Shown piece by piece: positions 33,629 to 50,034 of a stretch of DNA of 64,000 nucleotides. The notes under the pieces are model-generated. The model did no database searches. It saw only the letters and a program-made list of their open reading frames with translations, and had not been told where the DNA came from. The stretch comes from Macrostomum lignano (taxonomy: Eukaryota), in assembly GCA_002269645.1 (NCBI GenBank), contig NIVC01003727.1, forward strand, positions 1-64,000. Direction: 5' to 3'. The position numbers were made by a program, and so were the translations under genes. Positions within the stretch are counted from its first letter, which is position 1; each line of letters begins with the position of its first letter.

Positions 33629-33981
33629 GGCAACGCAACGCACTGACGCGATTTGTCTTTAAAAAATTTTACTACTCGTACCAGCTACAGCAGCTCTGGT
33701 TAGTCATCTCTTTTTTGTCCTTGCAAGCAGGCAGATTCTGTGGGCCGAAATGCGGTACCAAAGTTCTTTTCTATGCGCACAGCAATGGCTCGAATTCGTC
33801 ACAGTGCTGAGCGTAGACCGCTGTGCAATGCACTGTAGTTGTGTGCGCCTCGATTGTCCGCAGTCTGGGCTATTCTTTCTCTTCTGTACTCCGAATGTCT
33901 GCCAACTTGCGTACGCATTTTACGCACTTCAGAGCCAGTGAATTTTTTGTTTTATTTTTCACGATTCGGAGTGCAGACCGC

Positions 33982-34084
33982 AGTAGTATACGTTTTTTTG
34001 ACACAAAGCCGATTTCCTTATGGCGAAATACATAGTAAGTACAGGCCCAAAAAATGGCAGAGTCTGAAATTTGCCGTGCACGCA
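33982..34084 (+). repeat. Left terminal inverted repeat of the Maverick
   Basis: Inverted match to 49213-49315. Confidence 0.95.
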
Positions 34085-34318
34085 AACTAGCTTTTACGCA
34101 ATGAATTAACCAATTAGCTGAATCACTTTTACGCAAACACCTGTCTATCCACCTAAATTCTATCCGCAATGAATGCTGCTAATTACAAGCCCAAACAAAA
34201 TTCAATTTGACACAAAGCTTATTTCGCGTATAACTTAACGCATTTAAATTCTTCTTTTCAAGCAGTATTGTATATTTCAACTAGATACAAACACAATTTG
34301 ACGCACAAATTAGCGAGT

Positions 34319-34881
34319 TTACAAATATTGAGGCAGCACTCGTAAAACAAAATTGCGTAATTTAGCATACAAGTATCGAAACGAACCAGTGCGAATTATA
34401 TTCCGTTTAAAAACGCTTCGAATAAAACACTCTAGGTTTCCTCTGATAGTCAACTTATGAAAAATATAAAAAATTACCCAAAATCCACAACTTCCACTCT
34501 GTGGGTCTTGGATAGCAAAGCGACTATAACACCAATTTTTCGAATTTCCACATTCTTTTCCTAGCCATTTTGCTATTCTTGGCAATGGTACTAGACCAAG
34601 AGAATCAAAATATTCACCAAGTCGTTTGCTACCGCGACCTGCTCGATGACCATAAACCCAAACGCATACCCAATGTTTTCCGGGCAGGTTGGAGACGTCA
34701 GTATTAACGATAAAAAAAAGTCTTTACCGTCTAAAGGTAAGCGTGCAAGTCCACCAACAAAGTTTTGAGGAAAAACACCAAGAAATACAACATTTAAAAA
34801 ATGTGCGCACAATTTCGATACAACATTGCGAAGGAAGCGATCTGTTACACCACGATCTAGGATAGAATCAATTACTTCCAT
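34319..34881 (-). CDS. Adenain-like cysteine protease (Maverick maturation protease), split by one homopolymer frameshift
   Basis: Changing frame at A8 (34712-34719) gives FLGVFP...IVNTDVSNLPGKHWVC...EYFDSLG...IQDPQSGSCGFW, i.e. an intact His/Asp/Cys triad plus Gln. Joins ORF-track entries 34591-34881 and 34319-34585. Confidence 0.88.
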
Positions 34882-36194
34882 ACTGTGCCAGGAACAATGT
34901 CGCGAAGTTCAGTCAGTTGCAGTTGCTTGTCAAATATACCTCCAAATATGACGTTGTACACGGTACTAGTTGCAGCATTGAAGCGTAACTCTAGTTTTAC
35001 ATTTCCTTCCTTATACAGTTGCACTCCCCGTCCGACACCAGGTTCACTTCCAAGACTGAATGCAAAAATTGAGTAACCATTGGCGTAATCCAGCATATTA
35101 AATCCAATATCTCGTCCCTGTAGATAGATTCCAAGCTGTTGTAGCAAAAAATTATACTCTGTCACACAATCATCTCCAAAGTTTGTCTGCAGCGGACGCG
35201 ATGGTACCGAGTCTCCATTCACAAACACACCAATGCTGCTCACATTTGCATGCTCAAAGTTGAACGGATTTGTGTCCATGCTTCCATTGAATGCCTTGTT
35301 GCTTACGATTGCCATCAATAAAAGCCGTGGTACCCCACTAGGAAACAAATTTTCATGCGTATGGCTAGACGATCCTCGGGGTATAGTAAACGTACCAAGG
35401 CTTAGACTTCGGTGCGGATATAATGCATTGTGACTTTTAAGTCCATGAGCATGTGCACTGATAACACTCGGCGAGGGTTGAACAAACCGCAATCGTAGTT
35501 CTGCACGCAAAAACTTGATCTCATAGTCTTTTAAAACCGCACCAGCTTCTAATGTTGACCCGCTCAGGACAAATTTACTTTTTGCCGGTATGAGCTTGAT
35601 CCATAGTGGTGTCTTTGATAGTAGATACCGAGGCTGACGAAACAAATCCAAGAATAACGGCCCCGATACAGTGCACCGCCTATTGTTAGCAATGAGCGCC
35701 TGCCTCTTTGTTCGTCCATCGTTTTCACTTGTTGCATTCATTTTACCAGCTGTATCCTTGTAAAACCCCCACGGCAGTAAACCAGCCTTCTGAGCTGTAT
35801 GTCCATATTCCAGTAATGTGAGAAGCATAGCCTTGTATGGATACATAAAACTACCACCTTCAACTACAGTATCGCCAATAGTAAATTGAACGTCTTCAAA
35901 CAATGTTCCAATAACCAAATTATTCAAACAAACAAAATTTTTCGTTGCATCTATAGGTTCACCTTCACTATCACTAACGCTGAAGCATACCGTGAGCACA
36001 GTTTCTTGTAGATCCAAATACAAATCGCCTGCAGGCACAACTTCAAATTCGATAGGTGATCCTTTTGTAATACCATGTTGCGGTTGAATGTTAGTATATC
36101 GATTATCCAAAACACTAAACTGAACAGGACTTTGATCAAATAGCGACAATTCACTTTTAAGAGCAGCAATATCAGGTCCAAGCAAATGGTTCAT
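34872..36194 (-). CDS. Major capsid protein (double jelly-roll, Maverick/adintovirus type), ~440 aa
   Basis: N-terminal KSELSLF, PQHGITKGSPIEFEV, LYLDLQET, GPLFLDLFRQPRYL, NPFNFEH; typical position next to the protease. ATG at 36194. Confidence 0.88.
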   Translation of the reverse strand: MNHLLGPDIAALKSELSLFDQSPVQFSVLDNRYTNIQPQHGITKGSPIEFEVVPAGDLYLDLQETVLTVCFSVSDSEGEPIDATKNFVCLNNLVIGTLFEDVQFTIGDTVVEGGSFMYPYKAMLLTLLEYGHTAQKAGLLPWGFYKDTAGKMNATSENDGRTKRQALIANNRRCTVSGPLFLDLFRQPRYLLSKTPLWIKLIPAKSKFVLSGSTLEAGAVLKDYEIKFLRAELRLRFVQPSPSVISAHAHGLKSHNALYPHRSLSLGTFTIPRGSSSHTHENLFPSGVPRLLLMAIVSNKAFNGSMDTNPFNFEHANVSSIGVFVNGDSVPSRPLQTNFGDDCVTEYNFLLQQLGIYLQGRDIGFNMLDYANGYSIFAFSLGSEPGVGRGVQLYKEGNVKLELRFNAATSTVYNVIFGGIFDKQLQLTELRDIVPGTVWK

Positions 36195-36195
36195 G

Positions 36196-47890: not shown

Positions 47891-48442
47891 TTAAGATAGG
47901 TCCCAATATTCAAATACTTGAGTTGTATTACAGGTCTTTGCTAATTCTACTTGGTAGAAGCCTGTGCTCATTTGAGAGACTTTTACAGACTTGATGTCCT
48001 TCTGTACAATAATTGGCGAGTTTAGCAGCGGTTGAACTTGGGTAGAAATAGCAATTGATGATGATGGTGTTTCAGTTGCTGTCGTTGGTTTGGTACTTGT
48101 AGGCTTACTGCAAGTTTGCTTTGTTGGGTCATTGTAGCTGGTTGGTGATGGTGGTGGTGGTGCATACTGCAGTTGGTCAGTTGGTCGTGGGTTCGATTGC
48201 TGCCTAATTGACTGAATAACATCAGTTCTTGTGTAAATGCGATCTAACTCAGTTGTCTGTCTCTCGACATGAATCGAGGTTACTCTGGCGAGAGATGTAG
48301 AATATGATGCTCTTGCAGCAGAATTGGATGTGGTGGTGTCGTGGCAAATGCGTTTGCACTGATCTGGAGGTGGCCGCGTGAAGAAACCATTCTTGAATGC
48401 TATAATAATGGATAAGATGAGGGAAATTTGGTATAGGTGCAT
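47891..48442 (-). CDS. Predicted secreted mucin-like (T/P/S-rich) protein, Maverick cargo
   Basis: ATG start, hydrophobic N-terminus MHLYQISLILSIIIAF, three Cys, T/P/S-rich middle; no recognisable family. Confidence 0.45.
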   Translation of the reverse strand: MHLYQISLILSIIIAFKNGFFTRPPPDQCKRICHDTTTSNSAARASYSTSLARVTSIHVERQTTELDRIYTRTDVIQSIRQQSNPRPTDQLQYAPPPPSPTSYNDPTKQTCSKPTSTKPTTATETPSSSIAISTQVQPLLNSPIIVQKDIKSVKVSQMSTGFYQVELAKTCNTTQVFEYWDLS

Positions 48443-48454
48443 GTATACAATGTA

Positions 48455-48690
48455 TATAGAAACTGAACTAGCAGAGAATCAGTCTAAACAGAAACCGAAC
48501 TAGCAGACAATCAATCTAGAAATTCTGAACTAGCAGAGTATTAGTCTAAACAGAAACCGAACTAGCAGACAATCAATCTAGAGACTGAACAAACAGAGGA
48601 TCGGTCTAAACAGAAACCGAACTAACAATCAATCTAGAAACTAAACTATAGCGAACAGTCAATCTAAAAAAGAAAACTGAACTAGAGTAG
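48455..48690. repeat. Alternating two-unit degenerate repeat (GAACTAGCAGA core) upstream of the secreted ORF
   Basis: About 8 ~30-bp units alternating ...AGTCTAAACAGAAACC and ...AATCAATCTAG. Confidence 0.75.
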
Positions 48691-49146
48691 GTGATTAGCT
48701 ATCTTACCTTGTTTAACATAGCGCTCGGCCAATTCCTGCTGACGTGATCGCTTCATTTCACTTAAGATGTAAGTATAGTTGAACAAGTAGTATAATGTAA
48801 ACTTGGTTTAAATTATTTAATATTTTCTGTGTCAGTGTGTTCGTATATATATATAGTATAAAGAAGAAGCATGTTGACGCAGTTGTTGACATAGTATCTG
48901 TAAACCATCTGCTCAAGTTGGTGCAAAAATTCTATAGGCACTCAAGAATAGATCATTTACTATCTTTCTTCAAAAGGGTGATAATATTCACAAGTTTTCA
49001 ATATTTCAATAACACTTGAAATGTGTGAATAGCTTTGGAGTAAATTTGTCTTGAATGGAATCCTTTGAAGTGTGTTTGTGTCACCATTGCTAGAATCGGT
49101 TACTTGTATTTTGGACAGGTGGATATGCAATTCGTCTGAATAATCA

Positions 49147-49315
49147 CGTTGCGTAAAATATATTTAGCGTGCACTTGGAATTTCAGACTGCGTGCACATG
49201 GAATTTCAGACTGCGTGCACATGAAATTTCGGACTCTGCCATTTTTTTGGGCCTGCACTTACTATGTATTTCGCCATAAGGAAATCGGCTTTGTGTCAAA
49301 AAAACGTATACTACT
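49147..49315 (-). repeat. Right terminal inverted repeat of the Maverick, with three copies of a 23-bp subterminal unit
   Basis: GTGCAC-TT/ATGGAATTTCAGACTGC-type unit occurs three times at ~49165-49235 versus once in the left TIR. Confidence 0.9.
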
Positions 49316-50034
49316 GACCGCTGCCATTCTAAAGAACCAGGATTCATGTGAATCCTAATTGTACGATGAGGTTAGAGATTCAGATCTGACAGTCTTTAAC
49401 TGGCCCATCCGTAACCGTCCCTGACAGTTCCTAACTGACTGTCCAGGGAAGAGGGATGATTTTCACATAGACCAAACCCACTGACAAGGCTTGTGATTGT
49501 CAAACGATGGAGCACTTATTTTACTATGGACTAACGTATATTTTTTTCTTCTGTATGAAATTCATTCGGTTGGCGCTTAAAAGCCAAAGCGAAAACGAAA
49601 CCTTACCCAACAGTGGAAAATAAACTAATGCTAAAAAAGGTAGTTAATATATGTGTATCTCTAGCTAAGCCAGTGAGCTATCAAAGCTATCTGAATCCGT
49701 GGATGAATTGGTATTTATAGGTATCAAAATATTGAATCCATCATCCAGTTAAATAAAAGGTCACCTTATTTTACAGGCGTCAAACATTCACATTTGCCTA
49801 CCTGCTGTGAAGCATTTCCTTCAATTATCGGTGGAGTCGTGCCGCTGAAACCGGAGTCATTGTTCAATAACTGCGAGCACGTGTACTACGAGTATAATAA
49901 CTATTATGGATGGGCCTCGTAGGCATTTTGGCTTGTTTTATCAGTTTCTCTACTTTTAGTTCAGTAGCAAGGAAGAATGCGCAAGCTATTTGATGAAAAG
50001 AAATTCACATAGAATGACTTGCTATTAGAGTGAC

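Follow-up and report, generated by a model that had tools for sequence, protein, structure and literature searches.

The 64,000-nucleotide stretch of Macrostomum lignano DNA analysed here (contig NIVC01003727.1 of assembly GCA_002269645.1, positions 1 to 64,000, hereafter the window) carries a Maverick/Polinton element at 33982-49315 (15,334 bp). The element belongs to a young Maverick family of this flatworm and represents a non-autonomous form with an internal deletion. Compared with 19-kb sister copies, the element lacks 3,163 bp of the gene for the protein-primed DNA polymerase of family B (pPolB), a deletion that lies at window 42552 and removes codons about 292 to 1344 of 1,411 (about 1,050 codons). 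The long form encodes pPolB in frames of 1,411-1,412 aa, with PF03175 above its cut-off and the polymerase motifs present, and a check of the genome for sister copies with full pPolB, as proposed in the original prediction, found it at two insertion sites (frames >1,400 aa). In the short form, the frame ends at a stop just past the junction in 21 of 27 copies. The original prediction, made from the letters of the window, announced a complete-ended virus and its title passed over the polymerase; the element is not a complete virus, most of pPolB being absent and only its terminal-protein domain being left as a short frame. Protein-primed PolB belongs to the Maverick definition and is present in the long form and lacking in the window copy which, because its catalytic polymerase is deleted, is classed as a non-autonomous derivative (non-autonomous elements are defined in the available part of PMC6431247). 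With a probability of about 60%, the short form spread through protein-primed copying by the long form's polymerase acting in trans, with reinsertion by its own integrase.

The outer boundaries of the element are complete. AGTAGT stands at the outer end of both terminal inverted repeats (TIRs), which are about 103 bp long and share a 74-nt core that is 99% identical left versus right, and GACCGC flanks the element on each side as a 6-bp target site duplication (TSD). An empty allele is present elsewhere in the assembly (contig G000:C2778), in which both flanks adjoin with a single GACCGC. All 14 genes are co-oriented on the minus strand. The complete AGTAGT-initiated ends, the perfect TSD and the 13 or more co-oriented genes of the original prediction are borne out by these observations, and its assignment to the Mavericks/Polintons is upheld by the ends, the TSD, the integrase, the major capsid protein (MCP) and the long-form pPolB.

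That the deletion is shared by a whole subfamily is evident from a search with the N-terminal 210 residues of pPolB, all 97 candidates of which were scored: matches at 100% stand at 27 places, where the frames are 268-304 aa long; a further three match at 95%, and in two of these the frame exceeds 1,400 aa. Thirty of the 35 stretches examined have the identical deletion junction, three are long and two end before the junction. These stretches include 25 ends on the side of the gene for a protein resembling single-stranded DNA-binding proteins (SSB-like) and 23 on the capsid side, which reduce to 19 different flanks per side, and every flank of one side has its partner on the other through a matching 6-mer. 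They represent at least 17 insertion sites of the short form and at least two of the long form, each with its own target duplication; the site counts are lower bounds because the TIR search scored 40 of 68 candidates. The short copies show a median divergence of 0.09% over ~5,650 sites, which bears out the fairly recent insertion that had been proposed; the TIR differences from which it had been dated are common to the whole family and were discarded as a clock for this insertion. The long copies differ mutually at 0-5 of 5,600 sites, older, broken long copies exist at 96-97%, and the termini of the short and long forms are identical over their first 67 bases.

The deletion junction is also present in contigs of three independent short-read runs (X1, X7 and X16), and contigs of the polymerase interior occur in all four runs (X1, X6, X7 and X16). 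Contig depth at the junction versus the interior is 139.5 versus 31-45 in X16 and 42 versus 12-19 in X1, a rough three- to four-fold excess, although depth does not equal copy number. Because the junction is found at 17 sites or more, in independent runs and in excess over the polymerase interior, the pPolB deletion is real and was amplified after it arose. A second polymerase-deletion variant, of 1,153 bp (L079:4068-5222), is present in runs X1 and X16 and was not met among the assembly stretches examined. Among the assembled copies, contigs G000:C84, C4450, C4064 and C4161 are chimeras that join flanks of different sites through the element, C593 and C877 contain internal duplications, and C4072 has an 8.5-kb insert in the capsid gene.

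The portion of pPolB that the short form retains is predicted to constitute a free-standing terminal protein. The structure predicted for its N-terminal domain has a pLDDT of 81, and its ten best structural matches among the 48,161 chains searched, at Z 4.4-6.2 and rmsd 3.2-4.7 across ~100 residues, come without exception from Y-family polymerases, namely from their little-finger/PAD domains. A similar fold has been reported, in the accessible text of 10.1101/2024.03.18.585575, for D1, the terminal-protein domain of the polinton enzymes. The best viral match is an adintovirus protein (E 2e-8), and a Gly-Ser pair ahead of the last strand, at the place of the predicted linking residue, is invariant in 7/7 sequences.

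The full virion module that had been claimed is supported overall, with calls of unequal strength. Pfam matches above the cut-off were obtained for rve and the chromodomain, confirming the predicted integrase architecture, as well as for Adeno_PX, PLA2-like, dUTPase and the TATA-binding protein (TBP) family. The MCP is well matched, having 111 homologues, the named ones in fish, echinoderm and spider genomes at 28-33% identity, and is assigned from its sequence to the double jelly-roll type of animal Mavericks. The packaging ATPase, protease and penton are weaker calls. The ATPase has a Walker A motif and a Pox_A32 match below the Pfam cut-off (E 0.046), the protease a Peptidase_C5 match on a sister copy that is also below the cut-off (E 0.033), and both match a distant Maverick-like family of the same genome (E 4e-30 and 3e-9, respectively). 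The penton has a weak match to that family (E 3e-5) and none in the Pfam search of the element proteins, and its assignment leans otherwise on its position and on an N-terminal motif. The open reading frames had been described as mostly intact; those of the integrase, the protease and the gene at the PW-like position are in fact broken in this contig and open in most other copies (Table 1). The breaks sit in short base runs and are missing from most sisters, and decay of these genes was discarded in favour of likely assembly errors. Furthermore, contig C4450, which has the same capsid-side flank as the window's insertion, has the protease and PW-position genes open.

The distant Maverick-like family (MCP ~31%) is represented by G000:C976 at ~136035-146602 (L103, L104) and by C261 (L100, L101), with many copies among the matches listed. 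Its elements are 10.2-10.6 kb long, with TIRs of 589-665 bp, termini that read ACTAC.. rather than AGTAG.. and a 6-bp TSD, and they carry an integrase, capsids, an ATPase, a protease and a Fic-domain gene, with no polymerase match at all.

Under the favoured reading, the terminal protein would prime excised linear DNA of the short form at the ends that both forms have in common; pPolB from a helper present in the same cell would copy it, and the short form's own integrase would reinsert it. The short genome, being 3-4 kb smaller, would out-replicate its helper like a defective interfering (DI) genome. Run X7, which is of RNA type, contains both the junction and a 2,468-nt polymerase-interior contig, which is compatible with copying in trans and does not place both forms in one cell (X6 and X7 are called RNA-type solely from a spliced joint, and their contig depths are no measure of expression). 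A comparison of one short with one long copy gives pS of 0.02-0.10 for most genes and pN/pS of 0.04 for the MCP, 0.13 for the ATPase, 0.15 for both the integrase and the TBP-like gene, 0.25 for the terminal protein and 0.74 for a family-specific 183-aa open reading frame. The last is the putatively secreted frame of the original prediction, and it does have a hydrophobic N-terminus, followed by an S/T/P-rich middle.

Several observations weigh against this reading. The short and long forms are 4.2% apart, and a mosaic segment beginning at the deletion junction (window 41500-42552) is only about 85% identical to the long form, with pS of 0.38-0.40 for the polymerase remnant and the dUTPase; no donor of this 1-kb segment was found among the 40 of 61 candidates scored, and the direct parent of the short form appears from these comparisons to be absent from this assembly. 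Given this mosaic make-up and the unfound parent, the constraint seen in the low pN/pS values may predate the deletion, and the variation among short copies is too small for a selection test (shared variants comprise 9 nonsynonymous and 7 synonymous changes). The structural matches of the terminal protein, with Z < 8, are only middling. The distant family, finally, has TIRs, a TSD, an integrase and capsids in this very genome with no trace of a polymerase.

The last of these points favours spread without any polymerase, in which the integrase would act by cut-and-paste and host repair or replication would restore the donor site, as for Ds-type derivatives, the capsid and terminal-protein genes being open from youth alone. 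The integrase frame, open in 20/22 copies, and the near identity of the copies would also suit this explanation, which is nevertheless rather unlikely, on the indirect grounds that the deletion spares exactly the priming domain and the published Maverick model, in the available text of PMC6431247, is protein-primed self-synthesis. Gap repair, moreover, usually produces further shrinkage, and the short copies show none. Protein-primed copying in trans is also preferred to a history in which a defective genome arrived in the company of a packaging helper virus from outside, or relied on a related family's polymerase, and integrated many times in one episode, the resident long copies being bystanders. 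The 4.2% gap to the resident long form, the mosaic segment of unfound donor and the long open polymerase frames of related families in the genome would fit such a history, but the termini are common to the short and long forms and those of related families differ in the TIR interior, while both forms occur in runs of several studies, making it quite improbable. An assembly artefact as the source of the deletion or of the copy number is extremely improbable, and so is a complete autonomous virus: several contigs are indeed chimeric (C84, C4450, C4064 and C4161) and many end inside the element, but the junction recurs in three independent short-read runs, the flanks pair into 19 sites with 6-bp duplications and an empty allele exists.

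Genes outside the canonical Maverick set had been noted in the original prediction as cargo of this insertion; the TBP, dUTPase and SSB-like genes are real but not peculiar to it, being shared with related families. The genome holds five more lineages, with MCPs 66-80% identical, that have a shared gene order of SSB-like, TBP-like, polymerase, dUTPase, PLA2, ATPase, penton, core proteins, integrase, MCP and protease, and most of them also have a deoxynucleoside kinase. This kinase gene lies between the TBP-like and polymerase genes in G000:C889, C2529, C297 and C1680 (Pfam dNK 69 bits in C889) and is missing from the window's family; in three of these four contigs the TBP-like frame extends over 324-460 codons and overlaps it.

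The SSB-like gene is spliced, as had been predicted. Its intron (phase 2, GT..AG) has the same place in six lineages, with unrelated intron sequences; it is spliced in runs X6 and X7, from two studies, and unspliced in X1 and X16, and database gene models give the same 375-aa product. GT..AG intron-like inserts were also observed in related families, in the polymerase gene before the last catalytic motif (G000:C889 and C2529) and in the PLA2 gene (C4948). The SSB label is itself a lead. A single language-model match, to a 50-member giant-virus cluster in which 10% of members have DUF2738 (score 0.93), points to an SSB, DUF2738 presumably being an SSB family, and an acidic tail is present. Against it, Pfam, PHROGs and PDB profile searches are blank for the protein, the exon-2 structure model (pLDDT 56) has no fold match in the viral or PDB Foldseek libraries, exon 1 alone gives no language-model match, and comparison with a candidate homologue in the distant Maverick-like family gives a probability of only 1.9%. 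The label is tentative also because, in the available text of PMC4889955, the SSBs of protein-primed systems are usually not of the OB-fold. The only matches in a profile search with the SSB-like protein are gene models of the same host and one further protein; proteins P0112-P0116 and their cluster members stand in UniRef as host proteins with unrelated automatic names (VASt, OTU, VgrG).

The TBP-like protein matches PF00352 in two stretches at 31.2 bits (cut-off 22.9) and PDB TBPs at E 3e-4. Its second repeat keeps both of the Phe residues that play a role in TBPs and the first repeat has diverged; word-based searches found no homologues, which is weak evidence. Immediately ahead of the frame stands an in-frame stop codon, the AG of which serves as splice acceptor, and the first ATG of the frame is codon 44, past four invariant residues. 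An acceptor with a pyrimidine tract occurs at this place in 6/6 lineages, in 5/6 of which an in-frame upstream ATG is lacking. In addition, a GT(A/G)AG donor is found inside the SSB tail in 6/6 lineages, 259-619 nt upstream of the acceptor, at a codon boundary and in the context K-x-L|V-S, with two of the six donor-bearing copies having a frameshift earlier in the exon. Because Val-Ser is coded in the same way in 37/115 background cases and the lineages are related, conservation of the donor is support rather than proof. From this sequence pattern, a second, alternative splice that yields an SSB-TBP fusion is predicted and considered probable. Weighing against it, the SSB-TBP joint is not among the joints seen in the runs (X7 barely covers the TBP frame), a contig of X6 crosses the TBP-like acceptor unspliced, and a protein search found no fused SSB-TBP protein.

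The TBP-like frame could instead be started by a trans-spliced leader ending in AUG, giving a stand-alone protein and no fusion. This would agree with an acceptor of phase 0 that immediately precedes the first conserved strand in 6/6 lineages, with the start of the polymerase at an acceptor in three related families where this family has an ATG, and with the AUG contained in flatworm leaders according to the accessible part of PMC9851317. The explanation was demoted because of the conserved in-frame cis donor 259-619 nt upstream in six lineages and is considered unlikely, although both routes could coexist; no leader-like loose end occurs among those listed in the run contigs, with 19 further ones outside that listing. 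The related polymerase frames concerned are those of C889, C2529 and C4948, of which C2529 has no in-frame ATG, and their start could come from the AUG of a spliced leader or from a mini-exon that escaped notice.

With the fusion as the predicted product, the distribution of promoter motifs suggests a use for it. On the gene strand, TATAAG occurs eight times in the late block (2.5 expected; reached in 1/300 shuffles) and not at all in the early block; seven of the motifs precede annotated starts by 21-158 nt, the eighth lies upstream of the integrase, there is one TATAAG on the opposite strand, and the motifs are kept at homologous positions in relatives. The SSB-like gene is preceded by TATAAA. 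An early transcript from TATAAA would give the SSB-like protein and, by alternative splicing, the SSB-TBP fusion, which would bind TATAAG and switch on the virion genes. That a TBP-containing factor recognises TATAAG and so couples late transcription to replication is a tentative proposal, with the odds somewhat against it and less support than any other step of the mechanism, and it is countered by the fact that TATAAG hardly differs from an ordinary TATA box, for which a viral factor is not required. The most far-reaching combination, a satellite polintovirus that retains its own terminal protein, integrase and virion genes and whose helper supplies the polymerase alone and is outnumbered about eight to one, in a clade with an adenovirus-like early-to-late programme in which the SSB-TBP fusion switches on TATAAG capsid promoters, is doubtful as a whole.

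Table 1. Features of the Maverick element and its insertion site (window coordinates).
Feature	Position	Strand	Basis or remark
Target site duplication, left copy, 6 bp	33976..33981	.	single copy in empty allele
TIR, capsid side, starts AGTAGT	33982..34084	+	
Adenain-like cysteine protease	34322..34881	-	frame break near 34720 here; open in 18/20 copies covering gene
Major capsid protein (MCP), 440 aa	34872..36194	-	homologue search
Eight TATAAG motifs: 41505, 40342, 39299, 38904, 38083, 36704, 36352, 35015	35010..41505	-	virion/integrase block
Basic core-like protein, 152 aa	36196..36654	-	conserved in relatives; function inferred
rve integrase with chromodomain	36696..37852	-	frame breaks in 5' part here; open in 20/22 copies covering gene
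Conserved gene at PW-like position	38121..38806	-	frame break near 38430 here; open in 22/24 copies covering gene
Core protein with adenovirus pX-like motif, 142 aa	38817..39245	-	Adeno_PX 27.8 bits
Minor capsid protein (penton), putative, 329 aa	39302..40291	-	position and N-terminal motif
A32/FtsK-like packaging ATPase, 229 aa	40349..41038	-	weak Pfam match, Walker A, position
PLA2-like virion protein, basic N-terminus	41041..41484	-	Pfam
dUTPase, inside 1-kb mosaic segment about 85% identical to long form	41576..42109	-	Pfam
pPolB 3' remnant (about 64 codons), isolated by a stop	42354..42552	-	
Junction of 3,163-bp pPolB deletion, common to short subfamily	42551..42553	.	
pPolB 5' part: zinc finger, terminal-protein (D1) domain, Gly/Arg-rich linker; ~290-300 aa frame	42553..43444	-	
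TBP-like two-repeat domain, 185 aa, begins at splice acceptor without own start codon	43667..44224	-	
Predicted alternative intron joining SSB-like to TBP-like frame	44225..44566	-	conserved donor and acceptor
SSB-like gene exon 2: folded part, basic linker, acidic tail	44435..45254	-	
SSB-like gene intron, 71 nt, GT..AG	45255..45325	-	homologous intron spliced in RNA-type runs
SSB-like gene exon 1	45326..45633	-	
36-bp tandem array, length differs between copies	46341..47640	.	
Family-specific 183-aa open reading frame	47891..48442	-	weak constraint, pN/pS 0.74
TIR, SSB side, 23-bp subterminal repeats inside	49212..49315	-	
Target site duplication, right copy, 6 bp	49316..49321	.	

Long frames across the 36-bp tandem array were discarded as genes, being repeat artefacts. 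In the flanking DNA, a host otopetrin-like open reading frame with a Gln/Pro/Asp repeat lies at window 31033-33087 on the minus strand, at a distance of 900 bp from the element, with a Pfam score of 24 bits that falls short of the cut-off. To the right of the element, an inverted repeat pair (49649-50003 and 56910-57227, about 7 kb apart, 76-91% complementary) is possibly another transposon. The contig start (window 1-2000) shows extreme GC skew (-1.0) and is a simple C-rich repeat.

The mode of Maverick multiplication and particle formation in animals is the question that this natural polymerase-less mutant addresses, and a polymerase-less form that out-transposes the complete one is a ready-made genetic test of whether a polymerase is supplied in trans or none is needed. 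M. lignano is kept in culture as a model animal in which RNAi and transgenesis are available; its Maverick family is of recent origin and, as judged from the RNA-type runs, transcribed, so that transposition and particles become testable in this flatworm. If the element does encode a transcription factor, as is likely, this factor and the splicing together would be evidence of regulated gene expression of a viral kind among elements that have been described as intronless. The separation of the terminal protein from its polymerase mirrors a step proposed for adenovirus origins.

In a quick MCP tree (47 of the 111 homologues plus 7 genome proteins), the element, five families of the genome and two further proteins form a clade with a support of 99, apart from the named fish, echinoderm and spider elements. 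This supports an undescribed flatworm Maverick clade with spliced regulatory cargo and agrees with the possibly undescribed lineage of the original prediction. A metagenome scan for the nearest outside capsid gave no matches. In the literature, no report was found of a TBP-like or gp2.5-like SSB in an animal Maverick or of a spliced SSB-TBP fusion, nor of an amplified polymerase-less Maverick with a full virion module, of TATAAG in animal Mavericks or of the Mavericks of this flatworm host, although the family could figure in the element maps of PMC8502044 or in the genome-wide tables of polymerases of PMC10748475. The TBP label appears, in the figure legend of PMC8502044, for MELD viruses of non-animal hosts only.

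Animal Mavericks/Polintons, as described in the available portions of PMC8097293 and 10.64898/2026.06.19.733378, have (AGT)2 ends, a 6-bp TSD, an rve integrase, a protease, an ATPase, major and minor capsid proteins and pPolB. The element shares the ends, the TSD, the integrase and the major capsid protein, and pPolB in its long form, with the protease, the ATPase and the minor capsid protein as putative further points in common, but this copy is without the catalytic polymerase, and the long-form polymerase differs from that of known animal Mavericks by an Endonuclease VII-like insert. PLA2, tied to Alpha-class virion modules in the accessible text of PMC8502044, is likewise found in the element, as are pX-like proteins. 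Compared with intact vertebrate Mavericks, which are intronless with two opposed modules according to the available part of PMC8097293, all genes here are co-oriented and an accessory gene is spliced.

Non-autonomous Polinton families exist in Repbase. With non-autonomous DNA transposon derivatives and DI genomes the element has in common the internal deletion, intact ends, a copy number above that of the full form and a probable dependence on a function in trans, but it keeps 13 genes, including the whole virion module and the integrase, and loses one enzyme only. The two-repeat TBP domain is shared with viral TBP-like proteins (giant viruses, mirusviruses and one protist MELD map), and the SSB-like protein, with its acidic tail and DUF2738 language-model lead, invites comparison with the gp2.5-like SSBs of giant viruses, T7-like SSBs occurring in large eukaryotic DNA viruses according to the accessible text of PMC4889955. 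As in adenovirus and PRD1, which have a stand-alone terminal protein, the domain is encoded apart from the polymerase and belongs to the same predicted fold class; in the flatworm element, by contrast, the terminal protein is a predicted one, the split arises by deletion and another genome would have to provide the polymerase.

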